From assembly GCA_010093995.1 (NCBI GenBank), contig ML992503.1:859234-923233 (forward strand): a DNA stretch of 64,000 nucleotides. The letters run 5' to 3'. This DNA comes from Elsinoe ampelina. Lineage: Eukaryota. A program made the position numbers and the translations under genes. The notes below the pieces were generated by a model, which was not told the origin of the DNA, made no database searches, and saw nothing but the letters and a program-made list of their open reading frames with translations. Below are positions 1,394-49,877 of this stretch, piece by piece (positions within the stretch are counted from its first letter, which is position 1; the number at the start of each line of letters is the position of its first letter).

Positions 1394-2758
1394 CGTGGGG
1401 TCCACAGCACGTGAGCCAATCAGCTGATCAGGGTCCGCTCTTGCACGTGCCCATTCTTGCCTCGGCCACGTGCTATCTTACCCTCATCTTCTCGGGCCCA
1501 ATTTGACCTGGCCACAACGTCCCTATGCTCCTGTCCTGTCCTCCACAGACCCCGTCGCTCTCCCGTCTGTTGGCAATCTATCCCGTGACACTGCTTCATC
1601 AACGAAGCACTCGAGATATCGGCCCGTCTTCTGGTAGGGATACGACTCCGCATAGCAATGCGACAACCCGTGAACCCAGACGACATCTGCATTTGATCAA
1701 AACCTCCGAATACATCGCTCGGTCACGCCGAGCCTCGCTTGTTTTCAGTCAAGTCCACCCAAGCTGCTGAAAGCTTCCTTGGCCTATTTATATCTTTGAT
1801 TACCGGTTCCTGGGTTGCACATTCCCCGACCTCCGCATGCCAATCACTTACGAGCCCGCTAGCGTCTTCTGGTAGTTGGCATTGTCTCCGCGCGCCATGT
1901 CGTGAGGTGGTCAAGACGAGTTTGGAGCGGACGTCTCATGTAAGGCAATCACTCCTGTCGGGTCATACCACAAAGACCGCGGCTTGTAGAGCGGCAGACA
2001 CCGATACTTGCCCTGACAAAGCTCGTCTATCTGTATCTATTGTTCAGTGATCAATATCAGAAGAATCGGTAAGCCTCATTCTGGGCTCGGGAAATACAAG
2101 AGCCTTGGAGTCTCCTACTTAAGCGAGCTCATATCCCACGTCCTCCGTAGCATATCATCAAACCCAAAGTCAACCCCCCTGAGCAGTCATGATGTATCTC
2201 ATCTCTGCAGCTTTCCTGAGCGTCTGGCTTGCACTTCTTCTCGGCTACTACTTGATCAATGTACGCCTCAGGTACAATTATCTCTGAATGAACGTCCTCT
2301 ATCCACACTACCAGAGACCGGGCCAAGCAGTTCGCGAGTAGCACGAAGGAGACACTACACCTAGCTCATCATACCGTTTGAGTCACCACGCGAGGCGGTG
2401 GCCATTCCGCTTCACAGGGAGCATAAACATCCTCTTCCCCCTTCACCGCCGGCAGAAGTACTTGCATGGGCCAGGACCTGGGGAGGCGAAGTATGGGCGA
2501 TAGAATGGCTGCATCTGGAGGGTGAAGGTGGAAGGAGAAAACATCAAAGGTTGACCAAAGGATAGGGGCGTGAGGCAGGAAGAACGAGCAGGGTAGAAAA
2601 GAGCAGAGAGCACAGAAGGGAAATCCGAAAGTGTTTAAGGGATCATTGAACGCCACCAATATTTACGCCAGGGCCAACCTCCACTGCGGACGTGAGTCGT
2701 AGCACCATCTAAACACCTGGCAATGCGAACCCAAGTACATAAGCTCGTACGAACACAA

Positions 2759-5700
2759 TCAAGCCCCCTTCCCCTTCTCCCGCCTCCCCTCCGCCCACGT
2801 CACCGCCCTCCCCAACCTCGTCCCCGCCCTATCCAACCTCGTCCCCACCCTCTTCAACGTCCCCACCTTCTCCTCTTCCTCATTCCCCACCACCTCCTCC
2901 TCATCATCACTCTCCCCCTCCCTCACCCTCCTCTTCCTCCTCCTCGACCCCCTCCTCGCCACCTCATTCACAGCCCGATACCCAAAATCCATCTCCCCGA
3001 CCAACGTCCTCACATCCCTCAACAACGCCCTGACATCATCCTCGATACACTTCGTCCCGATCTGGACACACGCAAACGCCGCGAACCCAGGCTCGGCCAC
3101 GTGTCGAATGCTCAGTATATCCCTGTCCATAGCATCGAGGCGAGCAGCGAGGGAGTAAGCCTGCGGCGCACGGAGGTAAGGCGGGAGGGGATTCCCGCTC
3201 GTCACGGACGCGGAGAGGAGGGACAGCAGCGTGGTGCATTCCCTGCTGCTGACGTTTGCGTCGTCGACGAGGGCGCGGAAGTCATGCAGCCATTCGGTGG
3301 CCGAGTCGAGGTTGGCGGGCGTCGGGGAGGGTGCGTCCGGCGGGACGGAGGAGGTGTCGCACATGTCGGCGAAGGTTTGGGAGGCGTGAACTACCAGGGC
3401 GATGAAGTTGAAGATGCTCTGTACGCGGTTGATGATGCGGGTGTAGGTCTCCACGGGAAAGCGGCCGCCGATGGGGACGTCGAATTTGAGGAAGCTGGTG
3501 TGCATGCGGAGGGTTTGGAGGGTAAGGGTGGATTTGGCGTAGATTTTGTTGCGGGCTTTTTCGAGCTGGAAGTAGGGCGAGGATGGGGAGGAGAGGTCGG
3601 CGTCGCCGTGGACGCGGGCGCGGACGGTTTCGTCCATGACGCTGTTGTAGTTGGCGAGGAGGTAGAGGGCTGAGCCGAGGTCGCGGCGGAGCTCGGAGTG
3701 TTCGGAGAGTGGGAAGGGGAAGATGGTCCAGATCCAGGCGAGGAGGAGACCGGCGCTGACAGCTGCAAGGCGGTAAGGGGCCAGGAGGTAGGTCGGGTAG
3801 TAGGCCTGTCCACTCGAGGTCGCTTGGTCTAGTCCTAGGGTCACTGCTTGGATTTCATAGGCAATTATTAGGGTGTTCGTGATAGAGTAGATGAGGCCAA
3901 CCGGGGTAATCTTGGGGAACTTTAAGATGATGAAGAACCCCCAAAGCATGAAGAACCAGTAGAAGACAATGACACCTGCAAATACCCCTCTCACGATATA
4001 CCATGCGACCATGGACGTGCACATTGCTGCGAAAGTGCCAAGCACTCTCAGCACAAAGCCGAAGAGTGACTGCGCAGCCGATGGAGTCATGGAGATCGAG
4101 ACGATCGTCTGGGCCCAGAACAGTCGATGATAGATATAGAATGTCCTTGTGTTGGACAAATACCCCACGACGGCCAGACACATTGTACCGAGTGCCACTC
4201 TCAATCCAAAGACGGACTCTTTCGACCTCAAGAAATGTGGTAGTTTTCTGACAAAGTCACCAAACACTTCCCAAGCAGTCTCTGGTGGCAAGTGCTCGGG
4301 ATCATGTCTTCGTTGATTCGCTCCACCCATGTACACGTTCGAAGCTCGAGATCCATCTTCGTTCATCAGACCACTCGTGTCATCATGGTAGTTATCTTGC
4401 CGATGGCTCATCAGTTGGCGAATGGATTTGCGGAGACGCTTGTATCCAGGAACCACAAGTCGCTTCCTGCTCAGTTTACCGCTGTTCGCTTTCTCATCTG
4501 CGTAGATACAGAACTCGTGGACCCGGTCAGCTATGGATTCCAGAAGGAAATCCATGAAGAGAATTGTATACAGTTGTCGCCGATATCGCTGGCGAGTTTG
4601 AGTCCTTGGGAAGCTGTTGTACCATTCTGGTGTCACTACATCTTCCATCTTCGGGTCCCTGAAGAAGTTCGGCGGGAGTTCGATGCCTCTAGAGTCACAA
4701 AACTGTTTTAGGATGTAGACCTTCTTGCCTTTGAATTCCTGCACCTTCTTGCCAAAGAGCTCGGTGAATCCTGCTTCGCCTGGTGTAGGAGTATCTCCAC
4801 CGTTTTCAAGGTCTGGTAGTGCTTTCTTCTTCTTGAGCAGTTGAAGACTGATGAGGATATGTGCGAAACCGTCATCGATATGACCGGTGATATGTTGAAA
4901 AGGTCCTTTAAGCATGCCTGATATCTGATGCCAGTCCTCTACAGACTGGACACGGCGTCGCTCAGCATCCTCGGCATCCTCGACCAGAGGTGTCTCATCG
5001 GCTAAATCCTGCCAGCCGTGCTGCTCAGTCGTCCGCTCGAAGACGTCATTGAGTGAGCTGTACCCGACCATAATGAAGATCAGTGCCCTCAGCTTGCGAA
5101 AGATGTCTTTCAAGTCGTCGGGGCCAAGTTTCCCATAAGCGACTTCCCGCTTGGCGAAAGGCAGGTCCACACCGAGCTTTGCGTGGACAGCCGTGAGGTC
5201 TGCGAGGATGTCCTTAATCTGTTGCGCTTCCGGCGTCCGTGGTCGGTCAGTCCTACCAGTCGGCGTTCTGGTGAACATATCTCCCTTTTCTAGGCTCTGC
5301 AGAAAATCCACGTTCGCTTTCATCAGCTTACGCATCGTCTGGATGTAAGAGGTCATCTCCTTGAAAACAACACCTCTCATATTCGTCGGGAAAACGAAGA
5401 TCGACACGGCGAAAGCGATGCCAGTTCCAGTGAGCATGGCTTGCAGCAGACGATAGACAAAGGTACTACCAGCTCTCGTGTCCGGGAATTGTGGCGCATA
5501 CGCCATCGTGATGTTGCAGAAGATGCCGATCAAGATCCCAGGCGCATTGAATTGAGGATAGATTGCACGGACAGTATTCAGCGTATAGATCTGTAGAAAG
5601 AGGAACAGCCCAGCTACCGCCGCAGCGGAGGAGTCATATGTCCTTGTGTTGGGCCCATTGAGGACTGCGGACCGTGGTGCTCCTGAAGACGGCGAACGCG

Positions 5701-36222: not shown

Positions 36223-37812
36223 ATGAGCAAACGCAGCGCCGCAGAGACAGACCATGATGCGCAGGCGCTCAAGTCTGGACAACGACCCGAGCAAGAGCAG
36301 AATGGCGGAGACATACCAGAGTTTGAAGATGAATTCGAAGATGAATTCGAGAGCGAGGATGAAATCTTCGAGGCGGGTGTAGATGGACGACCAGATGCAG
36401 AACGGGAAGCAGAAGAGCAGGAAGGTCAGTACTCGATCTGGCAAGGTCAGTGGTCTGCTCTGACACACTCTAGCCATGGATTTGGACCAAGCTACATTCA
36501 TCCCTGGTCGGACAGCACTGGGAGCTGGAGAATCGTTGGCCCCGGATCTTTCGACGTATGAGATGCTGCACACTCTGGAAGCTCCATGGCCATGTCTCTC
36601 GTGCGACGTGCTACGGGATCACTTTGGCGACAACCGCAAGACATACCCAGCGACGGTGTACTCGGTGGCAGGAACACAGGCAGCGCGAGGAAGGGAGAAG
36701 GAGAACCAGATCATGGTCATGAAAATGAGCGGTCTAGGGCGCATGGAGAAGGAAGGCTCAGACTCGGAAGATGAAGACGAAGATGAGGACGAGAACTCGG
36801 ATCCTATCCTCGAGACCAGGACCATACCTCTTGCCACATGCACCAATCGAATACGAGCCCATCAAGCTCCTCAAGCGACAGCTGCGCGACCTGGCACGAC
36901 TCTCACAGCAGCCATGACAGAATCGGGAGATGTTCTTATTCATGACGTTACACCGCATCTCTCTTCTTTCGATACCCCAGGAACAGTCATTTCAATACAG
37001 CAGGATAAGCCAGTGAGCACGATCCGAGCACACAAGAAAGTGGAGGGCTACGCGCTGGACTGGTCACCTTTGGTACCGACAGGCAAGCTCTTGACCGGCG
37101 ACAGCGATGGGAAGATTTTTGCAACGATGCGGACCGAGGGCGGAGGCTTCGTTACAGACACCAACCCGTTCACCGGCCACCAGGGAAGCGTCGAGGAAAT
37201 CCAATGGTCACCGTCAGAGAAGAACGTGTTCGCTTCAGCGAGCAGCGACGGCACAGTAAAGATCTGGGATGCACGATCAAAGTCACGGAAACCTGCCGTC
37301 AGCGTACAAGTCAGCAAACACGACGTGAATGTCCTCTCATGGTCGAAACTGACCACACATCTCCTCGCATCCGGAGCGGACGACGGCGAGTGGGCTGTGT
37401 GGGATCTTCGACAGTGGAAGCCTTCGAGTCAAGGGGCCTCCGTGGCGACCAAACAGAACGCTGTGGCGAGCTTCAATTTCCACAAGGAACAAATCACGAG
37501 TGTCGAGTGGCATCCGACAGATGACAGCATCGTCTCGGTGGCTGCAGGCGACAACACGGTATCACTGTGGGATCTCAGTACCGAGATTGATGATGAGGAG
37601 AGCAAGGATACTGCTGGAGTCAATGACTACCCGCCGCAGCTACTTTTCGTGCATTACATGGATCAAGTAAAGGAGGTGCATTGGCATCCTCAGATTCCCG
37701 GAGCTCTGATGGCTACCGGTGGTAGCGGATTTGGGTATGTTACATGCGTACTGGCATGGCGGGATCTGCTTGCTAACCTTCCGATAGCGTCTTCAAGACC
37801 ATCAGCGTGTAA
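36223..37812 (+). CDS. RRB1: WD40 ribosome assembly protein Rrb1 (GRWD1), 3 exons
   Basis: Acidic N-terminus EFEDEFEDEFESEDE, WPCLSCDV, EGYALDWSP, GHQGSVEEIQWSP, PPQLLFVH, HWHPQIPG. A final intron at about 37735-37787 gives the ending GFGVFKTISV*. Confidence 0.95.
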
Positions 37813-38095
37813 GCTGATCCTCTTCGGGCAAAGTCGCAGTGCCACGACGGGAAGTCCAGCATTTCGGAACCAGCCGATTCTTGATCGCCAGCGACCTGTC
37901 AAGACAAGCGTCACGCAGATCAGGCTAGACCGCCATGGCCGCTCCTCCACATTCGTCGTGATGTATCGACGCAAATCAGCTCCTTCTAAAGAGAGCAGAG
38001 ATGACGCTGATGGCGGGTTTCTGCTTAGTTCCTGAATGCAGAGCATCGGAAAAGAAAAGCTCATAGCAGGATACTTGTGGTGAGCTTGGGCGAGA

Positions 38096-38935
38096 TCATT
38101 TGATGTCCTCCCGTCGCAGATCATTCACGACCATATATCGTGATATACTGATCCAACCCCATCTGAACCATCGCATTTGACTTTTGTGTGCTTCCGTCAT
38201 GGCTCTCTGCCCACTTCTGTACCCTCCAACGCCGCTGATCGCAAGGAGCGGATCCGGATACTCCCCTCCCTTCTTCCTGCTCAAGAGCCTCGCGACGACC
38301 GTAATGGGGACATCCAAGATCGATGCGTACTTCCTCGCAACCCCCAGCGAAGGCAAAACGTACAACTTCACAGCAGCATCCCAACCTTCCCTCCCCTTGA
38401 CCAAAGTTCGCACAAATGCCTTCGCCCCATGATACAGCGAGATATGATTTGGATGACCCGACACCCCCTGCCCATCAAACGTGATCAGCACATCAATCCC
38501 AGCTTTCACCGGCCCATCCCTCTTCGCCTTTTCCAACTCCGGCACAAACGTCTTCGTCAATAAATCCACAATCGGACTCTCATCCCACGTCCTCGTCATC
38601 GAATCCGGGAACCTCTCATCATCCAAAACCAGCACATCGCTCTCGTTCCGCACCCCCAGCAGCAAGCCGGATTTGACCAATTCCTGCCGGCGGATCGAGC
38701 CCAAGCCGTCAGCGTTGCCGGTGCTGAGGCAGAGGATCTTGAGGTGATTCCCCAGGTGTGGTTTGGTCAGAGCGAGGATCGAGGGGGAGAAGAACATGGC
38801 TTCGTCGTCGGGATGGGCGATGAGGAGGAGGATCCGTTTGCCCCTGAGGGTGGGGAAGGAGGGGGTCAGGTTGGCGGTGAGGAGCCAGAGGGTAAGAGGG
38901 AGGAGGGGGAGGAGGTACCAATTGAGGAATTCCAT
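38096..38935 (-). CDS. GPI12: N-acetylglucosaminyl-phosphatidylinositol de-N-acetylase (PIG-L)
   Basis: N-terminal TM, IAHPDDEAMFFSP, LCLSTGNADGLG, TFDGQGVSGHPNH, HKSQMRWFRWGW, SRYMVVNDL. Confidence 0.96.
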   Translation of the reverse strand: MEFLNWYLLPLLPLTLWLLTANLTPSFPTLRGKRILLLIAHPDDEAMFFSPSILALTKPHLGNHLKILCLSTGNADGLGSIRRQELVKSGLLLGVRNESDVLVLDDERFPDSMTRTWDESPIVDLLTKTFVPELEKAKRDGPVKAGIDVLITFDGQGVSGHPNHISLYHGAKAFVRTLVKGREGWDAAVKLYVLPSLGVARKYASILDVPITVVARLLSRKKGGEYPDPLLAISGVGGYRSGQRAMTEAHKSQMRWFRWGWISISRYMVVNDLRREDIK

Positions 38936-39296
38936 TGATGCTGGTGTTGTGCTAGCTTGTCATATTGATTTGTGAACGATTTTGTCGTACTTGTCGAGTG
39001 CTAAACGTGAGGTGAGGTTGGGAGGGAGCCCGCAACCTCACCTGCCAAGACCTTCAATTTCACTCGGAAAATTCGATTTCACATCCGATATCCTTACCAC
39101 TTGTTAGACTTTACACATCAACTTCACCTCTACCAAATCAACCCCATTCAAGCCGCAAAGTTTATGTTCAAATCAAGTCCGGATGGTGAATTGTGCTCGC
39201 AAGAGGCGTACCAGGTTCACGACAACGACTGCCGATGTTTGACTTTAGCCGCATCCGCCCGAGGTCCTGGATAACCTCGCTATTGGTCGGCACCGT

Positions 39297-39368
39297 CATG
39301 CATACGGTAGCTTCCGCCAAAACAGTCAAAACAGTCAAAACGCTCAAAACCATCAAAACGCTCAAACC
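39297..39368 (+). repeat. Left TIR plus 9-bp subterminal repeats (NNTCAAAAC)
   Basis: catgcatacggtagcttccgccaaaac agtcaaaac agtcaaaac gctcaaaac catcaaaac gctcaaacc. Confidence 0.9.
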
Positions 39369-39789
39369 CAGTATTTGCTATTATACCACCTCCCCGCGTA
39401 CCACCTATACCACTTATTGCAATGATTCTTATTGCAATTGACAGCTCTTATAACGCTCTATCGTTTAATATAAGTATTATTCTCTTATTATATACCTTTA
39501 GTTTTTTGTGGCTTAGCGCTAGTATAAAAGCTAGATGCGCTGGTTTTCTATACCTTTCTTCCTATTACCCCTTAATATACTACACTACTCGATATAGCTT
39601 TATAATCCGCTACAATCGAGGTAGATAGGCCTCTTATCAAGTACTAGTTACTACACAAGCGCTATAATTAGCCTAAAGTACTCTAGAGGCTATTAAGGCG
39701 TAGTTACACCCTGTCGCTTAGAATGCTCTAGCGCCTCTTATAAGGCTAGTAGCTCTCTATCTACCCTAAGGCACTAGTTAACTCCGAGG

Positions 39790-40980
39790 CTCTCTACTAT
39801 AGCATTAAGGAGCTATTCTAGCTATGTATTAGCTAGTAAGAGACGCTAGAGGTACTAAAAGAGTAAGGCTTTAATATATCGTTAGGGACGCTAAAGCGCC
39901 TACGTAAAGAGTTAGGCCTTATCTATTAGATTAATCGAGAAGAGGACGAGGTTAAGTATAAGCGAATATAGTAGCTACTATAAAGTAAATACGACGCTAG
40001 TAATATTAAGGATTAGAGCCTTAGCTACCTTTATACCTATATAAGGCAGAAGTATAGGATTGTCGAGAGGTAATACATGTTTGTAATACGTTTACTAGTT
40101 AGTTTACTAACTCTAACCTAGTCGGCGCCTTTACTGCGCTATAATTGTAATTAATTCCTTAGCGTTCTAGATTTATAGTAACTAGCGGCCTGCCGGTCAC
40201 GGCGTATAAGACGTACTAGAGCTAAACTATACCTAGTCGATAGACGCCTATTATAAGCTTAAGGAGTATAGTATTGAGATTTATGCCGTAATTAACGAAT
40301 TTTCACGCTATATTATTTAGGCCTATATAGGCTTCTTAGTAAGGAAGGCTATATTAATTATAAAGTAGTATACTACTATTACTACCTTATATAGCCGAAT
40401 CCCCCTCGAGATCCGCATAGATAGAGGGAGTAAGACTATAATAGTCTTATAAGTGTATCTCGACGCTTGGCGTTAGCTAAGTAGTCTCCCTTTAGAGGTG
40501 AATAAAGCCTTCTTATTCGGCACAAGTAAGCAGAATTAGCGTATTAAATTATAGTAGGCCTAGCTTACGAAGAGTACTACGAACTACTAGCGAAGATAGT
40601 TTACTAAGCTAAAGAAGTTAAAGCGCTAGAAGCGTAATCTTATTACTTACTAAGTCGCTCTTATAGCTATATACATGCCTATTCTTCGTATAGAGGTATA
40701 GCAATTCGTGTATTAATAGAACTATTACTGTATCCGGAAGTAGCTAAGACAACTGTATATAATTATAGAGGTGCTAAGGCTTTTATATTATTATCTAGAG
40801 ATAGTCGACGTATAGAACTATACTATTGCTATACTACCTAACTAATTCGATAATTTAGACTAGTACACTAGCGAATTTAGTAAGGTATAAGTACTAATAG
40901 ATATTTGTAGCTAATTAAGCACTAGATTATAAGTAATATCTACCCTCTAACACCCTTAATCTCTATACCTTAATTCTCTC
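39790..40980 (+). pseudogene. RIP-degraded transposase (N-terminal HTH plus integrase-core DDE); boundaries approximate
   Basis: Still readable as is: GFNISLGTLKRLRKELGL. After reversing RIP-type changes: PGPNYTWSxDAYxKLxEYGIEIYA.ID.FSRYIIW (~40215-40320), IPLEIRxDRGSET (~40400-40437), FGTSKQNQRIExWW (~40515-40557), FV..WNHH.IRK (~40705-40740). Intron-like GT...CTAAC...TAG at ~40069-40121. Confidence 0.82.
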
Positions 40981-41318
40981 CGCCGCTGGCCTCTAGCCTT
41001 ATAATAGTTAAGTAACTAATACTTACGGTGTTAGACTCCACTAGAGGGCTTATTTTATGCTTCGTAATGTACTAATTAAGCACAATTAATAGTAGTGCTA
41101 TTCTCTACTATTGGAGTGCTAAAAACTAGATAATTCTTAAGGCTATTAATTATATATAGAAGTTGCCGAGCAAATCGTAAACGCTAAGTAAATACACTAT
41201 AAACATCTAACTTATATATATTAAATCCCCTCTCTAATATACTAGGGCTTTCCTACTCTATTTTCTCTACGGTTTTTACTTATTACTACTATATTGTTTA
41301 TTTATTACTACTAGCGAG

Positions 41319-43085
41319 ATGCCGCTACCTTCTTAGGCACCTTTTTACAAATATAAAGGCTCTAATTACGTAGTTAAATATAGACACCTCGCTAAGTGTT
41401 CTATTTGCTATAAGACTAATCTAAACTATTAATAAGTAAGTATAGTATTAACGCTAGAAGAGCCTTAGTACTAACCTATATAGGCTAGTCTATCTCGCGT
41501 ACTATCTAGTAGTCTAACTCGCGCGCTATCTTAGGCTAACATAGACTAACTCGTAATTATAGTAGCGAATATAAAGCAATCTATAGCGCCGGCGCTAACC
41601 GTATATAGTAGTCTCTTAACTAAAGCTAATACGGCAAGGCGTGCTAGATACTAGAAGGGCAAAAAGGCTAAAGGCGTAGTAGTATAATTGCTATATATAG
41701 GATCTTTGCTAGTCTCTTAGTGTTTATATAAGGACTTACTAAATAATTCGCCTAACGAAGAAACTCCTAAAGGACTAAAGGCTAATAAAGAGTAAAGAAT
41801 TAGACTTTACCTCTACGGCCTAACAATCGAGATAGAGTATAAGCTTAAGCATAGTATACCTTATAAGAAGATTATCTCTTAGCTAGAGCTAACTAAGTAG
41901 ACGGACTAGATTACGCTATCGGAGTTTAATACCGAATTACTAGAGAGTAACTACTAAAGAACGTCCTTCTTGTTAAATTTAGTCTATAGTTACTACTCTA
42001 ATCCTACTATCCGCGATCTAGAAATAGTAATACTACGCTTTACAAAGCGCTATTTCGCACTAATAGAGGACAATAAGGCTATGCCTATTGCTAACAACGT
42101 CTTCTAGTAGCTAAGCATCTAGAAGATATTAGTTAGCCTCCCGCGTAAGCCGAAATTAAAGCGTACTACTATCGAGTATCTCCTTTATGTCGTAATTAAA
42201 CAAGCTAAGGACGACAAGTCGAAGAAACAGTAGAAGTATATAGAGTATCTATAGAGAGAGTTAGAATCTCTAAGTTACGCTACGAACGCTAATATAAATA
42301 TAATAATATCCCTAGCTATAAACACTAAAGCGAATATTAAGGCTAATTCGTAGAATAAAAATCTTTTTATAGAGGACACCGACTTCTCGTTTTTAAATAC
42401 TTCTAACGACGTTAATGTTAAGCTAGAACCCTCGTCGGTTAATAATAAGATTAAGGCCTTAATTGAGGAGCGTATATAGCAAGTTTTAGTAGCTAGGGCA
42501 AAGGGGAAGGAGAAGTAGCCTAGCTAGCTTGTCGACGGCAAGGAGACTATTAACCTTATAGAGTCTTTACTAGCCGCACCTACTACTACTATGCTAGCTC
42601 TACTACTAGAGACTCTACGCTTCTAGCTTTATACTAGGAGCCTTCTTATAAGTATACCGACTAGTATAGTTAGCAGTGTTAAGTCATCGACTATATAGGA
42701 TAATCTCTTTAACTTAGATAGTACTACCGAGCCTCTACTACCTTTTAACACCCCTCGGTAGCTATAGCGTATAGTGCTAAGTAAGGAGACTCTCGGTAGG
42801 CTAATAAACTTACTATATAGCTCTCTCTTTAAAGCTAAGTCGTCTATAGAATTAGAGTAAAGGATTAAGACTAAGGCAACCTCTAAGGAGTATTAAGAAC
42901 AGCACAAGCAAGTTAATAAGCCTAAGTAATTATATTAACCTCGAATATATAAGCAAACACGAAGCAATTACTCGGTTAAGGCTAGTAAGCGTTAAAAGAC
43001 TATAGTTAATCTAACTAACTATACTCTCTATAGTTATACTAGCTATAAGGCTAAAAGGCCTTATAAGTCTATACTAGGGTCATAG
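41319..43085 (+). pseudogene. Second RIP-degraded gene of the transposon, function unknown; 3' end approximate
   Basis: ATG at 41319; Cys/His-rich start (HLAKCSIC survives); canonical intron GTAAGT...TACTAAC...TAG at ~41436-41483; codon-like sequence continues with many TAG/TAA stops. Confidence 0.5.
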
Positions 43086-43364
43086 GCTTGCCTAAAAGGG
43101 TAAGGCGTAGTTTGACACCCTATATATATACTTCTTCTTACTAATAATTCTCTTCTAGTAAAAAACCTCTTTATAGAGAGGAGAGAGAAAGAGAGAGGAG
43201 ATAAGAGCCCCCTACGTAGCGGAGAGTATAAGCACCCTCTACTATATCCTACCGCCTTACTATTAGGGTAGTAGGGTAGAGAGGGGAGATACGAGGGGGG
43301 GTAGGGGTAGGGGTAGTAGTAGGGGTAGAGTTAGGGGTAAAGGTGTTAGTTAGAGGTGCACGAA

Positions 43365-43565
43365 TTAGATAGTGCAAGTTAGACAGTAGTAGAACAGTTT
43401 ATAGTACGAGCTAGATAGGTAGTAGACTAGTTCGTAGTGCAAGCTAGACAGCAGTATACGAGTTAGACAGTAGTAACGAGTTAAACGGCAGTACGAGCTA
43501 GATAGTAGTAACGAGTTAGATAGTAGTATACAAGTTAGATAGTATAAGGTAGACAGTGCAAGTAG
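43365..43565. repeat. Degenerate tandem repeat (about 12-20 bp units, GAGTTAGACAGTAGTA-like) inside the transposon
   Basis: Recurring agttagacagtagt / agctagacagcagt / agctagatagtagt units. Confidence 0.6.
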
Positions 43566-43699
43566 GATCGCTAGTAGTTCGCTAAGCAATTTATAGTACA
43601 TATAGTTACGATTTAACATTGACTAGAGGAGGCAATATAAAGGGAGTAAAATTATAGTCTATAAACTCTAGAAGAATATATAGGTATTATATTTACTAC

Positions 43700-44400
43700 T
43701 AGTTTATAGGCCTATTTACAAGTTCCGCAATTCTATCCCTTAGCTACTATAGCTTAGCCTTAGTAGCGAGCGTATTATTCTCTAGCGCCTCTACTCTCTA
43801 CTTAAGCTCCTTAATACAGCCTATAGTTACTAGCTTCTAATCCTCTAGCTTCTCCTTCGTAAGCTAAGAGGCACACCCCTAGCGATAGTAGCGGCGGTAG
43901 TATATACACGACTTAGACTACTTGTTAAGGAAGTAAGTATATAGCTCGTTTGCCTTTATACACTGTTCGTAGGTGCGTTTACTAATGCCGCCTTCGTTTG
44001 TCTCTATAATGCGGCCGATAGTGTTATATATATAGAGCATTATAAAGTTCTTACTACGCTTGTTACTACTAGTCTCGCAGGTGTTAACGAGCTTAAACTA
44101 GTTTAACTCAGAGATAAACTAAAATCTAGCTAGATTCTCAGTCTTAGAGTAGTAGTATAAGTATATAATAGGGTAGCTATGCGAATTAGTGGCGAACACT
44201 AGCCTAAGGAGCTATAAAGACATATACGGCCTTAGAGTTACTAGTTGTTTCCTTAGAGGTATTAGAGGCATAAGGATCGTTATTAATTATAGCATCTAGC
44301 GCTTACGAATCGTATCTTCTAGAAGGTAAAGTTAGTAGTAAACTAGCTACAAATATGCTATAATATATACTTAGTAGAGGTTGCTTTAGTAGTGTTAGCT
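43700..44400 (-). pseudogene. Third RIP-degraded gene: Zn(II)2Cys6-like cluster plus coiled coil; boundaries approximate
   Basis: Minus strand 43971-43873 gives C-x2-C-x6-C-x10-C-x2-C-x7-C when three TAY codons are restored to TGY; the other three Cys are intact TGT. It is followed by IKELK*RVEALEN...L**LRDRIAEL. Confidence 0.62.
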
Positions 44401-44904
44401 ATAGTAAATATTTAATTAAATTTAACAGGGTTATAATAGTATAGTAGAGTTCTAATTAAACTATATAGTAACTATAAGCTTATATATATTAAAGCTACTA
44501 TTATTGTTGCTAGTTTAAATAGTGACAATAGTAACAATAGTGACAATATAAAGACCTAAAAGCGGTAAGGAACAATAAACACCTACCGGATTAAGCCTTA
44601 CTCTTAGTAGCTTAAATAGAGAATAATAGAGATCTATTCTAATAGTATTTATAGTACATTCGCCGCCGTAGTTGCATGATGTAGGCAATATCAAGGTGTT
44701 AGAGGTAGGAGTGCTAGCGGAGTGCTAAGCACCTCGCCGCCTAGCCGCTGTGACATGCACTAATTACGCTAGTACTAAAATTAGCTTAAAAAAAATACTT
44801 AAAGTTAAAGGATGATAGAATAGATTAATCTGATCAATTTACTGTTAATTATATATCAATATTGACAGAATTAAGGGAGTTAGAGGCCTCTAAACTTTGA
44901 TGAT

Positions 44905-44963
44905 TTGGGGATTTAAGTGTTTTGATGGTTTTGACGGTTTTGGCGGAAGCTACCGTATGCACG
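44905..44963 (-). repeat. Right TIR plus 9-bp subterminal repeats
   Basis: Reverse complement reads cgtgcatacggtagcttccgccaaaac cgtcaaaac catcaaaac acttaaatc. Confidence 0.9.
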
Positions 44964-45604
44964 ACCGTCGTCGGTAAGACGAGGGGGCCAGCGCAGGATC
45001 GCCTGCTCCCAGGTTTTGGAAATGCCCCGCGTCGGAGGAGACCCCGCATCTCCACACTGGGCGATGTACAAAGATGCAAGCCAAGAAACTGAATACAGTG
45101 ACGAAAACACCAGAGTAATTCCTTACAACAAGCCAATTGGGTTGTCACTTCACGTACAACAGTCGGTAAGTACATTTCATCAACTTCTGGCACTTCAAAG
45201 GCCTCAAGTGGCACGCTTGCAACCAAGACAGCCCCCGCGAAACGTCCGTGACCCCTCCAAAGTCTATCCCCAATAGCATCCGGCTGTTCTGGCCGTTGCT
45301 CTCGGCTCACGTCGATTGTGGTCTGTGGGCTACCTCTAGCTCTTCCTTATAACGATCTGCCCCGCCATATTCCCCCACCATGTCCTCATTCGCTTCAAAT
45401 AACATACCACCATCTTTACGCCGCGCCTGGGAAGAAGCAGAACTACTCGAGCAAAAGCTACGTGAACATATTGGGTCAAGACAGCCAGAGCAAAGCAAGA
45501 GCACCTCCGAAGAAAAAGAGCAGGCAACAACACCAGCAGCAGTCAAGCGCAGCACGCAGCAATCGTCCACCACTGAGCAGAAGGCTGTCTCTCCTCCGAC
45601 CACC

Positions 45605-46791
45605 ATGGCCGAAGCATACAAGGCCCGCGCCATCGTCACCCGCAGCTCCCTTCACGACGATGGCTGGCAACTCGAAGACGTCTCCACCACCACAGACGTC
45701 CAGGACGACGAAGTAGTCGTCGAGATGGTCGCCTCAGGTACCACCTCCTCCCCAACCCCTCAGCCTCACTAACCCCCAAAGGCATCTGCCACACCGACAT
45801 CCTCATCGGCACCCTCCCCGCCGGCACTCCCATGACCCAATACCCCCGCATCATGGGCCACGAAGGCTCCGGCTACGTCCGCTACGCCGGCAAATCCGTC
45901 ACCTCCGTCTCCATCGGCGACCCGGTCCTCCTCTCCTACACCTTCTGCTCCACCTGCCACACCTGCCAGGCCTCTCACCCAAGCTACTGCGAACAATTCG
46001 TGCCGCTCAACTTCGGCGGCCGCCCCACCTTCACCGACGCCTCCGGCTCCCCCATCCCCGGCTCCTTCTTCGGCCAATCCTCCTTCGCGAGCTACTCCAT
46101 CGTGCGCGCGTCCTCGCTCGTCAACGCCTCCTCGCTCGTCTCCTCCCGCGACGACCTCGCCCTCTTCGCCCCGCTCGGGTGCGGCATCCAAACCGGCTCC
46201 GGCACCGTGGTCAACGCATCCGGCGCCACTCCCGCCTCGACCCTCGTCGTCACCGGCCTCGGAGGCGTGGGCCTCTCGGCCGTCATGGGCGCGCGCATCG
46301 TCGGCGCCCGCACCATCGTCGGCATCGACCGCGTGCCCATGCGTCTCGAGCTGGCGAGGACTCTCGGCGCGACTCACGTGGTGGACAGCTCCAAGCTACC
46401 GGAGGGTAAGTCTCTCAGCGACGTCGTGCGGGACATCTGCGACGGCGTGGGCCCGCATATCACGGTCGAAACGTCGGGCGCGCCGCCGCTCATCGAGGCG
46501 GCGGTGGATTTCACCCGGGCCAAGGGGAGTGTACTCCAGGTCGGGGCGGCGCCGCCCGGCTGGGAGTTGAAGCTGGAGGTGTTTAGCTATTTGACGCAGG
46601 GGAAGAGTTACAAGGGGGTCGTCGAGGGGGAGGCGAATCCGCCCGACTATGTGCCCAAGATGGTGCAGTGGTATAGGGAGGGGAGGTTCCCGGTGGATAA
46701 GTTGGTCAAGTTTATGAAGGCGGATGAGTTCAAGAGGGGGTTGCATGAGATGCATACGGGGGAGACGATTAAGCCGGTGATTTTGTGGTAG
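45605..46791 (+). CDS. Zinc-dependent medium-chain alcohol dehydrogenase (aryl-alcohol dehydrogenase-like), 2 exons
   Basis: EMVASG/ICHTD, GHEGSG, structural Zn motif CSTCHTCQASHPSYC, PLGCGIQTGSG, GLGGVG, IKPVILW. Intron at ~45738-45781. An alternative in-frame ATG lies at 45380. Confidence 0.92.
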
Positions 46792-46972: not shown

Positions 46973-49877
46973 TCAAGTGTAGACCTCCTCAGTCCATGCG
47001 TTCAAAGCCACACCCTCCTTGGCGATGTCTTCCTTGTCCAAGAACAAAAGCGGCATCTCCACCAGCGTCCCCCTCACCCTAGCCAGCACCTCCTTGACCT
47101 CCCGGGCTCCCTGCGCACCTGCACTAAACTCCTCGGAAACGACGTGTCCCCATTTCCACGTGCTTGGTCTCTCCGGCTGCCCGCCCTGCTCGCGGATCTT
47201 TTGCTCATCTGCCTTCTTTTCTTGCTCTTTACTATCTTCCTTGAGCACGGGGAAGAAGCGACCATAGTAATCGTCGTACTCCTTCCAGGTGCGAACCTTG
47301 TCCGTGGGCACAGGATGGAAGACCTTCTCAAAGGCCTGTGTGTTCTCATGAGCAGTATTGTTCCAGAGGGACGTGAACTCTTGGCCGAGCGGGTCTGCGA
47401 CCACGCGATCTTCGGGAGAGTTCCAGTCGTATTCGTTGACGGGGACACTGTTGACGGGCTGGAAATTGGGATCCCGGCCGTTCTTGTAGTCCTGTGGTGG
47501 GACAAGACCGAGGTGCTTGCGGAAGATGAAGCGACGGAGGGAAGCAGCGAATCTCGATGCTTGGTAAGGGCGACCGTCCATGGTACTGTCGACAGTCTCG
47601 GGATCCTCGATGCAGATCGCGATCTCACTGTCGTGAGTACCGAGTTGGGAGCGATCGTTGAGGTTGGCGGAGCCGCAAATGACGAGGCGGTCGTCGGCGA
47701 TGAGGAGCTTGGAGTGAACATATAACTCTTCGGAGACGAAGGAGTCGATCTCGGACTCTGGACTACCGCTCCAAGGGATATTGAGCACAGATTGTTGATT
47801 CAGCATGTAGGATGATGAGATGGTGTCGTATTGACCAGAAGCCAGACCATCATGAGAGCCAATATCTTGTGTGGCGGACTGGAACTGCTTGTAGTTCTGA
47901 ATATCATCTTGTGGGCGTCCATATGGCTCGTTGGATTGCTGCTGTGGATCACCACCATACCCAGCACCATAGCGCTGATCGTGTCCTCTACGGGCGTCAT
48001 CGTACGAGACCCCCGACTTCTGTTCAGCCTCCTTGAGAGCATCCGACGCATTGATCCGGTCGTAGTTACGAAGGTTGAAGAAGCGGATGTATCTCATGGG
48101 ATCAATGCCTTGCTTACTGAGTGACTCGTAGATGGAATAGCCGCCGCGGTTGATGGAAAAGTATTGGAATTCCATGATCGCTCGAGTGGAGATGGCATCG
48201 TCAGCCTTGAGATCGCCGGCAAAAGCAGGGACGGCGGGCATAATGACAATGATTTTGTAGTTCTCGTTGTTTTGGTGGGCACGGACAATACGCTCGACCA
48301 TTGCTGCGCCGATCTTGTTCTTGATTGGCTTTTGTTTGTCATCCGTGGCAGTGATGAAAAACTGGTTCTCGATGTAGACAAAGTGCTTGCTGTCACGAAT
48401 GGCGGTGATGTACGCATCCGCAATGCTGTGCTCGATTTTACCGCCATGAGACCACTTGCAGGCAGACCTCATGATCTGGCAAGGGGTGCTTCCCGGCATT
48501 CCCTTGTCAACACCCTGGAAGTATTGCTGCTTGAATTGGTCCGTCTGGTTGGCAAGTCTACCTCGTCCTTCCTCGTATTCCTGTCGTAAGCGTTGTCTTA
48601 GGTGGTACTCGCCACTCTCAGGCCTGTCATGACCGATGATGCCAATGTGACTAGCCTCGAACTCGATGGGCGCATGACGTTCAGTCTTCTTCCTGACATC
48701 GTACTTTTCTTCGTAGATGAAGTTCCAGCGTTGAGCAAAGTGTGCCTTGAGATCTTCGACCACGGGGCCGATGAGAGAAAGAGACACGTCAGACCAGCCC
48801 ATGCGAGAGTTGTACTTGCGGTCCAATTTGTTGTTCTGCCAGTTCACGACATCTTGGAAATCCATGATGCGAGCATTGTTGTAGTCCTGGCCGGGGAAGA
48901 CGATCTCGTTCAGATCGCCCGGATGTACATCGGCAATAGGGTGATTGTGTGTATCCCAGCGACCATAGCAGAGATCGAGACCGCCCATGAAAGCGAGATC
49001 GTTATCGACCACACACAGCTTCTCGTGATGAGCCCAATAGAGGACCGCATCATCGTTCATGCCGTAGATTGCCTTGAGAGCATCGCCAGGCATCTTGGAC
49101 GCAGTAGCTGCTGTCAAGTTGAGATTGGAAAAGGAAGACATGAAGTTTGAAGCCAGAACTTGCTTGTCCGGTAAATGGTCGGGGTGACGGAGCACAGTGA
49201 TGTTTGGATGCATATCCTCCAGTGCATGCTTGGTATGCGAAGAGGAGAGTGTGAGGGCTTGAGTGACCTCCTTATAGACGATGACTCTGACTTTGACGCC
49301 ACGCTCCGCAGCATTGCGAAGCATGCGGTCAAGCCGATATTGCTCGTTGAGTGCTGGCGGCCTCCTGAGGTAGACTTCTGGTGATAGCCACCAGTCCAAG
49401 ATCCAGACGGACTCACGGGCACGTTCCAAAGCAATGCTCACGGCGTAGAAATAGCTGCAGCCGTCGACATACCATTTGACCTGGTTGCCGGCTCGCTGGG
49501 GTGCGAAGGATTGGAAGCGATGGGCGCTACTAGAGTGAGAACCGTCCGAGCACTGTTCGACGCCATGGGTGTGCGTATGGGCGTCGTCCTGGTTGCTTAG
49601 CTTGGCATTGATACTGCGGCCGACATCATGCATGGCATAATTCATCTTATCCATGAAGCTGGCGGACTGGCCTTGTGGCTTGGGTGCAGCCTCTTCGCTC
49701 TGCGATTGGTTGCCGCCCTGGTCAATAGTCAATTGGGGAGGTTTCGATGAGTTCAGTTGGACTGACAGTGAACTTCTCAGCCGACTGCTTCATCTTTCCC
49801 ATCATGTCACCGAACATGCCACGGTCTTGTTTCTCACCGCCATCACCTTTGTCTCCGCCCGAGCCAAATTTGAACAT
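46973..49877 (-). CDS. Phospholipase D (two HKD motifs, no evident PX/PH domains), 2 exons
   Basis: KWYVDG, DWWLSPE, WAHHEKLCVVD...GGLDLCYGRWD, YIENQFF, YVHSKLLIADD...GSANLNDRSQ. Exon 1 from ATG 49877 (MFKFGSGG...EKFT), intron at ~49718-49766. Confidence 0.95.

Follow-up and report, generated by a model that had tools for sequence, protein, structure and literature searches.

The window, by which we mean the whole 64,000-nt stretch of Elsinoe ampelina DNA that was analysed, contains an AT-rich island of 5.7 kb with matching inverted ends at both sides. The island lies in the promoter region between a divergently transcribed PIG-L gene and zinc-ADH gene, and it is probably heterochromatic within the shared promoter region of these two host genes. 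Its features are collected in Table 1.

Table 1. Positions and characteristics of the features assigned to the element and its ends.
Feature	Position	Strand	Remarks
GTCGG, favoured target-site duplication (TSD), left copy	39286-39290		direct repeat of 5 bp without mismatch, symmetric in register to 44970-44974
Left terminal inverted repeat (TIR), 33 nt	39291-39323	+	30/33 match the right end; mismatches at TIR positions 1, 4 and 8
ACCGT, TSD of the first-pass annotation	39292-39296 and 44964-44968		direct repeat; probably TIR positions 2-6
TACGG in left TIR	39303-39307	+	has its mirror motif, CCGTA, at 44953-44957
Subterminal 9 bp repeats, CAAAACNNT, left end	39318-39366	+	tandem repeat, x5.4
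Gene 1, transposase gene remnant	39700-40740	+	frame of 39298; Pfam rva_4 core 40225-40737
Candidate gene 2	41559-43001	+	frame of 39297; belongs to no known family
Spacer separating candidate genes 2 and 3	43170-43560		(GGGGTA)n, G-rich, and 18/33 bp tandem repeats
Candidate gene 3	43699-44220	-	frame of 44961; weak, C-terminal half coiled-coil-like
Subterminal 9 bp repeats, right end	44919-44946	-	tandem repeat, x3.1
Right TIR, 33 nt	44937-44969	-	pairs with left TIR
GTCGG, favoured TSD, right copy	44970-44974		pairs with 39286-39290

The inverted arms (39292-39351 and 44909-44968, 60 nt each) are 87% complementary. The 64 kb contain exactly two copies of the 20-mer TGCATACGGTAGCTTCCGCC, one per end, and two matches were obtained in 0 of 100 shuffles. 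The TIRs proper exceed the roughly 30 bp expected of IS3EU and GingerRoot elements, and the 9 bp repeats CAAAACNNT beside them are likely to be transposase binding sites. No further fragments of the element were found elsewhere in the 64 kb window, and the 20-nt TIR core had 0 exact matches in metagenome contigs.

RIP is indicated by TpA/ApT values above about 0.89 and (CpA+TpG)/(ApC+GpT) values below about 1.03. Within the element these indices are 2.01 and 0.37 at a GC content of 36%, versus 0.52 and 1.26 at 53-54% GC in the flanks. Other copies were assessed via contigs from two sequencing runs (X1 and X2) of one source sample, the only runs found to contain this DNA. Contig depth over the whole element was approximately 8-20 fold relative to the flanks (summed depth in X1: 1565-3781 inside versus 182-192 outside), and the places that differ between copies were transitions at 785 of 824 in X1 (95%) and 840 of 905 in X2 (93%). 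The multi-fold depth and the dominance of transitions thus point to a RIP-mutated repeat family, in line with the RIP fossil proposed in a first-pass annotation of this DNA. Stop codons now account for about 10% of the codons in every frame, and only one ORF of 90 aa or more, counted from stop to stop, lies wholly within the element (39311-39628), so the absence of long ORFs noted earlier holds.

Purine/pyrimidine periodicity was used to trace former genes, since RIP cannot alter the purine/pyrimidine pattern. Together with the reading of stop codons as X, this makes a RIP-wrecked element classifiable from a single copy. The only family match in six frames was Pfam rva_4, "integrase core" (E 1e-6, 29 bits, cut-off 26), which improved on a shorter segment (E 5.2e-8, 33.3 bits, cut-off 26), and Pfam searches with seven sub-segments at E up to 10 yielded nothing beyond it. 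As read, the gene 1 frame gives xSIDAYYKL, AVINEFSR, IRIDRGSKT and SKQNxRIKLxx, and every departure from the IS3EU motif pattern can have arisen through C>T or G>A. A four-block motif series is readable in this frame, and with the rva_4 match it makes up the transposase core expected of IS3EU/GingerRoot. The two D residues of the DDE triad (40243 and 40420) are intact, and the E position (40546) reads K (AAA). Among the rows available from Data S3 of Kojima & Bao, the signature WHxD; IDGxSR; RxDxGxEN; NQRIExxW is found in 14/14 IS3EU and 7/7 GingerRoot rows, in 0/10 named Ginger2 rows and in 0/8 complete bacterial IS3-family rows. The predicted placement in IS3EU/GingerRoot is derived from one Pfam profile and these motifs, the link between rva_4 and IS3EU being a motif comparison and not a named database record; a literature search for PF24764 returned no related paper.

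The N-terminal extent of gene 1 is suggested by purine periodicity, and the helix-turn-helix previously claimed could not be confirmed, as the heavily damaged region upstream of the rva_4 core, where IS3EU/GingerRoot transposases have no HHCC zinc finger, has no Pfam match. Stop density misses even the transposase frame (16 stops in 171 codons versus 11-20 in the other frames). A word-indexed protein search with the X-masked transposase scored 4030 candidates, with none at E<=0.001 and none at E<=10; this null shows that the method is blind through RIP, and not that relatives are lacking.

We conclude, with a probability of roughly 0.85, that the element is an inactivated single copy of an autonomous, multi-copy cut-and-paste DNA transposon of the IS3EU/GingerRoot superfamily in a filamentous ascomycete host, mutated by RIP. 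The Pfam match, the motifs, the RIP indices and the transitions between copies all agree with the TIR transposon with an integrase-type DDE transposase that had been recognized at first pass. When active, the element would have encoded an RNase-H-fold DDE transposase on the + strand at about 39.7-40.7 kb. By analogy with the family, this protein would bind to the inverted ends as well as to the 9 bp repeats next to them, excise the element and integrate it via a short staggered cut. The family grew to roughly 10-20 copies in the genome before RIP hit all of them at CpA/TpG, giving rise to the stop codons in each frame. The element belongs to the already known IS3EU/GingerRoot group, and is a useful annotation and no new kind of element.

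Three genes had been proposed for the element, and homology supports the first of them but not genes 2 and 3. Gene 2 exhibits a purine periodicity of 0.60/0.49/0.52 (p=0.0014), which is RIP-invariant and resembles that of host genes, and contains 26 stops in 481 codons versus 55 and 67 in the other + frames. This signal is statistical only, and we lean slightly towards a real accessory gene of the element. Pfam, the PDB and 1.84 billion proteins were searched for relatives of gene 2 and gave none: phmmer with the X-masked sequence found 0 at E<=0.001 among the 1.84 billion representatives, a null weakened by RIP damage, and the PDB sequence search gave one match only, at E 1.3. The region of gene 3 is weakly coding-like on the - strand (p=0.037), with 11 stops in 174 codons both in this frame and in the matching + frame, and neither the PDB sequence search nor Pfam assigned it to a family. 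We accordingly propose only tentatively that the - strand carried a third gene around 44.2-43.7 kb. Genes 2 and 3 had no Pfam match to alpha-kinase, TET/JBP or DUF3716 (for Alpha_kinase in the gene 3 region at E up to 10), with sensitivity limited by RIP damage. A purine/pyrimidine Markov model built from 16 host ORFs placed frame and strand correctly in 42 of 87 held-out windows and strand in 45 of 87; it can therefore not decide on strand and was dropped.

It is possible, though we consider it the poorer account, that the transposase gene is the only gene of the element and that 41.5-44.3 kb is non-coding filler, a single long extension of the transposase at its C-terminus, an intron-split part of its gene, or captured host DNA. 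This would fit with the failure to find a family, a structure or a related sequence for the two regions, with the weak periodicity and ambiguous strand of gene 3, and with the gene-fragment capture known for GingerRoot. On the other hand, it leaves the RIP-invariant periodicity of gene 2 and its stop density, half that of the other + frames, to be explained, and a second and sometimes a third gene in such a layout occurs in described fungal IS3EU elements. The negative searches weigh little here, because identical searches miss the transposase too. Furthermore, the gene 2 and 3 regions are no private nested insertion of this copy, since repeat depth is similar over all of the 5.7 kb. The spacer between them is deleted in at least one other copy (joint 43087>43532, one contig per run).

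The limits of the element were derived from the break points of k=31 contigs and one loose-end row among the rows listed. On the left the unique flank contigs stop at 39319, and on the right they start at 44940 (X1) or 44941 (X2), from which it follows that other copies share the sequence from 39290 through 44969/70. Among the loose-end rows listed, clipping at 39290 is seen in two contigs that differ in their upstream sequence. We therefore favor, with good but not full confidence, an element spanning 39291-44969 (5.68 kb) and flanked by GTCGG as a duplication of 5 bp. What counts against these outer limits is that 3 mismatches, 2 of them transversions, fall within the last 8 nt of the TIR. 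The 27-bp TIR of the first-pass annotation (39297-39323) does match the right end, with one transition mismatch only, and looks more like a working end.

With these inner limits the same element would span 39297-44963, its TSD would be ACCGT, and the outer GTCGG repeat would be due to chance. A perfect 5 bp repeat then abuts the cleaner TIR, and ACCGTC, which fits only if the ends are asymmetric by 1 nt, would suit the 6 bp TSD of IS3EU, GingerRoot and REP9. We nevertheless regard the inner limits as unlikely. The contig breaks and the loose ends at 39290 imply that copies share 6-7 nt past this TIR on both sides, so a strong target-sequence preference would be required for other copies to bear identical flanking bases; such a target consensus is absent in REP9 and GingerRoot, and the outer GTCGG would be a coincidence of roughly 1 in 1000. 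The direct repeat ACCGT is thus present as annotated, but since other copies share it and the GTCGG repeat is equally symmetric, it is probably part of the repeat unit and not the TSD.

Whichever limits apply, the symmetric perfect repeats at this one insertion are 5 bp long (GTCGG or ACCGT) instead of 6 bp. The tips read CA..TC with the outer limits and CA..CG with the inner ones, and TACGG..CCGTA is located 12 or 6 nt inside the tip, respectively. As T-to-C changes are not possible by RIP, the tips never were TA. The duplication length, seen at one insertion, and the ends other than TA..TA are atypical for IS3EU/GingerRoot. We also considered whether TACGG..CCGTA might mark the actual ends, with 6 bp duplicated outside them, and rejected this: the hexamers next to the motif, CATGCA and TGCACG, relate to each other as inverted sequences instead of direct repeats, and other copies have them as well.

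A more far-reaching proposal, which we put forward as doubtful, sees the family as a Pezizomycotina lineage of its own, placed inside IS3EU or next to it, with 5 bp duplications, non-TA tips, an ancestral TAYGG kept 12 nt inside, and two lineage-specific accessory genes that have no detectable relative in a set of 1.84 billion proteins. Descriptions of IS3EU/GingerRoot elements are sparse, and hand-curated fungal families are few. Should other copies likewise show a 5 bp duplication and ends other than TA, the superfamily would have to be defined more broadly, and two unassigned genes would join alpha-kinase, TET/JBP and DUF3716 as passenger genes.

The element resembles REP9/Styx of Zymoseptoria, an IS3EU-like element for which PMC8232023 gives four genes and a length of 7.9 kb. 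In both cases a TIR element of IS3EU type with several genes resides in a RIP-competent ascomycete, and REP9/Styx copies in a sister species are RIP-mutated, as here (PMC8232023, PMC10853768). That our element is a copy or close relative of REP9/Styx is nonetheless improbable, given its length of 5.68 kb, its 5 bp repeat and the lack of a DUF3716 match, as opposed to the 6 bp TSD, the 36-43 bp TIRs and the two of four genes with DUF3716 given for REP9/Styx in these papers. Moreover, none of three pieces of the TIR core, each 9-10 nt long, occurs in the Styx supplement, which may not contain the Styx sequence. We can practically dismiss the reading that the element is a decayed LTR retrotransposon or belongs with other integrase carriers (Ginger, Polinton), despite the integrase-like fold of the transposase and the 4-5 bp duplications of Ginger2, as the ends are inverted and not direct, RT, RNase H, protease, rve and polymerase are unmatched in any of the six frames up to E 10, and the E block is of the IS3EU and not the Ginger2 type. 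With Ginger2/TDD the element shares the nature of an integrase-type DNA transposon, but the Ginger2 E block is S-Q-G-x-x-E-R in 10/10 named rows of the available data, not N-Q-R-I-E, and Ginger termini are TG..CA.

According to PMC12730594, canonical IS3EU elements carry two genes in opposite orientation, rust IS3EU termini read TAYGG..CCRTA, the motif that occurs here inside the TIRs, and a TET+ IS3EU is present in Tuber indicum. Together with REP9/Styx (PMC8232023), the Tuber element precedes ours, contrary to the first-pass suggestion that such an architecture was undescribed in ascomycetes. The putative order of transposase, middle gene and opposite-strand gene, and the fungal host, are what our element has in common with the TET+ IS3EU of rusts and T. 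indicum, as described there. In those elements the middle gene codes for a TET/JBP dioxygenase and the third gene for an alpha-kinase; we detected neither of them, with RIP limiting the sensitivity. From IS3EU/GingerRoot in general, with GingerRoot duplications varying between 6 and 8 bp, the element differs in its tips, in the internal position of TACGG, in the 5 bp duplication and in that alpha-kinase was not detected. It shares with them the core motifs W-x-x-D, I-D-G-x-S-R, R-x-D-x-G-x-E-N/T and N-Q-R-I-E-x-x-W with the rva_4 match, the long TIRs, a GC-rich duplication, TACGG..CCGTA in the ends and, possibly, a second gene on the opposite strand.

The element is one of many copies of an IS3EU/GingerRoot-type transposon and has been inactivated by RIP. 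It forms an AT-rich island at 39.3-45.0 kb, with a GC content of 36% against 53-54% in the rest of the window, and its RIP indices are extreme (TpA/ApT 2.01; (CpA+TpG)/(ApC+GpT) 0.37; composite +1.64). The usual thresholds for the first two indices are 0.89 and 1.03, and the corresponding values in both flanks are 0.52, 1.26 and a composite of -0.73. Each of the six frames contains 165-210 stops in about 1890 codons, and a single stop-to-stop ORF of at least 90 residues lies entirely within the element. The first-pass annotation had described an ORF-poor, RIP-marked island with inverted ends, and inverted repeats, RIP indices and stop counts all bear this out. Since the element is located between the PIG-L and zinc-type alcohol dehydrogenase genes, it occupies the upstream region that these two divergently oriented genes share, and the four flanking host genes have normal RIP indices. 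No further fragments of the element's family were found within the 64-kb window.

The transposase (gene 1) was identified by reading through all six frames, with X at every stop, in a Pfam scan with E up to 10. Only one family matched, rva_4 (PF24764, "integrase core domain"), at residues 310-480 of the + frame of 39298 (nt 40225-40737; E 1e-6, 29 bits, cut-off 26). On a 301-residue segment alone the match scored 33.3 bits (E 5.2e-8) and covered profile positions 8-170 of 194. The same scan gave no match to any rve, RT, RNase H, protease or polymerase family. The comparison between superfamilies drew on a portion of Data S3 from Kojima & Bao 2023 (supplement of PMC10045372). In that portion, four blocks (W-H/S-x-D-G-x-x-K-L; I-D-G/A-x-S-R; R-x-D-x-G-x-E-N/T; N-Q/V-R/K-I-E-x-x-W) are common to 14/14 IS3EU and 7/7 GingerRoot rows, and the last of them is absent from all 10 named Ginger2 rows and all 8 complete bacterial IS3-family rows. 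The element reads xSIDAYYKL, AVINEFSR, IRIDRGSKT and SKQNxRIKLxx, and wherever this departs from the blocks, reversing C>T or G>A can recover the family residue (e.g. TAG from CAG or TGG, AAA from GAA, AAC from GAC). The catalytic aspartates at 40243 and 40420 remain D, and the glutamate position at 40546 is now K. The profile match, the four blocks and their RIP-reachable departures support the motif series and the IS3EU-group assignment proposed earlier. A 60-codon stop-free stretch (40647-40826) lies outside the transposase frame, in the + frame of 39297, and is probably due to chance because the rva_4 alignment runs on in the transposase frame through 40737.

Other copies were assessed by comparing contigs from two sequencing runs, X1 and X2 (one sample, probably the assembly source), with 38900-45400 at a likeness of at least 80%. 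In X1 the summed contig depth rose from 182-192 in the flanks to 1565-3781 across all bins within the element, a roughly 8-20 fold difference that is not a copy number and was taken only to mean many copies. The copies differ by transitions at 785 of 824 places in X1 and 840 of 905 in X2, which is what RIP leaves. Relative to the transposase region, depth was about 82% over candidate gene 2 and about 71% over candidate gene 3. Both regions are therefore part of most copies and not a private nested insertion at this locus. Four internal deletions were found among the copies, each in single contigs. One of them (43087>43532, present in at least one other copy) removes the repeat-rich spacer, over which depth is below that of the rest of the element.

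Features of the element and its surroundings (window positions)
Feature	Position	Strand	Remark
WD40/CAF1C_H4-bd protein gene	36464-38032		further-out neighbour
PIG-L GlcNAc-PI de-N-acetylase gene	38099-38959	-	flanks element
GTCGG	39286-90 and 44970-74		outer symmetric perfect repeat
ACCGT	39292-96 and 44964-68		symmetric perfect repeat; duplication in first-pass annotation
TGCA			symmetric perfect repeat; palindrome within TIR
End motif TACGG..CCGTA	39303-39307 and 44953-44957		12 nt inside favoured tips
Candidate gene 2	41559-43001	+	
Spacer between candidate genes 2 and 3	43170-43560		G-rich (GGGGTA)n and 18/33 bp tandem repeats
Candidate gene 3	43699-44220	- (preferred)	
Zinc-type alcohol dehydrogenase gene	45577-46788	+	flanks element
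Phospholipase D gene	46976-49789		further-out neighbour

Over 60 nt, 39292-39351 at the left end and 44909-44968 at the right form inverted repeat arms with 87% complementarity. Each element end carries one copy of the 20-mer TGCATACGGTAGCTTCCGCC, which is found nowhere else in the 64 kb, and two matches were seen in none of 100 shuffles. Subterminal 9 bp repeats are present at both ends (5.4 copies left, 3.1 right).

An exhaustive check for perfect repeats in symmetric register returned only TGCA, ACCGT and GTCGG. ACCGT had been taken as the target-site duplication, which would place the element at 39297-44963, and the contig ends decide between it and GTCGG. The unique left-flank contig stops at 39319 in both runs, and the right-flank contig starts at 44940 (X1) or 44941 (X2). 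Because the contigs were built with 31-letter words, an end falls where the final 30 letters recur at another locus, so other copies must share the sequence from 39290 inward at the left end and out to 44969 or 44970 at the right. Had ACCGT been a random-target duplication, the contigs would be expected to reach about 39326 and 44934. At least two more contigs, with unlike upstream sequences, clip precisely at 39290. As other copies thus share ACCGT, it is probably not the duplication, and we favour, at a probability of roughly 0.7, an element of 5,679 bp (39291-44969) with GTCGG as its duplication. ACCGT would then occupy TIR positions 2-6 and be palindromic except for a single mismatch at its centre. 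An objection to these outer boundaries is that three TIR mismatches, including two transversions, then fall within the terminal 8 nt. With GTCGG or ACCGT alike, the duplication measures 5 bp. The two form nested perfect direct repeats, GTCGG-C-ACCGT ... ACCGT-C-GTCGG (39286-39296, 44964-44974); one speculative reading is that an old ACCGT duplication was carried along and absorbed into the mobilised unit.

The candidate passenger genes were assessed from the purine/pyrimidine sequence, which is unaffected by RIP since RIP makes transitions only. The purine excess at codon position 1 is 0.55-0.62 in the window's host genes. Candidate gene 2 (frame of 39297) has a periodicity of 0.60/0.49/0.52 (p=0.0014; p=0.0006 for its core, 42099-42890), and its frame contains 26 stops in 481 codons versus 55 and 67 in the other + frames. 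An equally stop-poor - frame over the same region would require that no more than about 30% of second codon positions be purine; as no host gene shows this, that frame is read as an antisense shadow. In candidate gene 3 the periodicity is less pronounced (p=0.037) and the two strands have the same number of stops, and we prefer the - strand only because its predicted translation is K/N/I/Y-rich, like other RIP-damaged frames, with a C-terminal half that is heptad-like. A Markov model of the purine/pyrimidine sequence was dropped as a strand test after finding the right strand in 45 of 87 control windows. Neither region matched a Pfam family (E up to 10) or, meaningfully, a PDB sequence, and candidate gene 2 had no match at E<=0.001 among 1.84 billion representative proteins, but little weight attaches to these negatives, as single-sequence searches miss the transposase too.

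The architecture had been put forward as new to ascomycetes, which overstates the case: in the portions of the literature drawn on here, fungal IS3EU and REP9 elements have already been published, so ascomycetes were already known to carry multi-gene TIR elements of the integrase type. REP9/Styx of Zymoseptoria (7.9 kb, four genes, 36-43 bp TIRs, 6 bp duplications) is classed as a distant IS3EU member (PMC8232023, PMC10853768), and a TET/JBP-carrying IS3EU family is reported in another ascomycete, Tuber indicum (PMC12730594). In Colletotrichum lupini, IS3EU is the most abundant DNA transposon by automated annotation (PMC11645255). Identity with REP9/Styx was rejected on size, on domain content and because the TIR core does not occur in the text of the Styx supplement, which may lack the Styx sequence. 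The IS3EU elements of rusts have TIRs of over 30 bp with ends TAYGG..CCRTA, and carry a transposase and an oppositely oriented alpha-kinase, sometimes with TET/JBP between (PMC12730594). In contrast, the tips of the present element are not TA..TA, though TACGG..CCGTA is present further inside, and its passenger regions match no known IS3EU passenger. Relative to the rust motif the ends look extended outward by CACCGTCRTGCA. Short A-rich tandem repeats (39318-39366, CAAAACNNT) lie some 20-30 nt inside the element end, and the rust IS3EU-1_PGra, in the part of its description drawn on here, likewise has short GAAAAAT-like repeats about 20-30 nt inside its end, a loose resemblance. The 5 bp duplication also differs from those of known IS3EU, GingerRoot (6-8 bp, GC-rich; PMC6839031) and REP9 elements, and the family is possibly a variant lineage of the IS3EU/GingerRoot kind.
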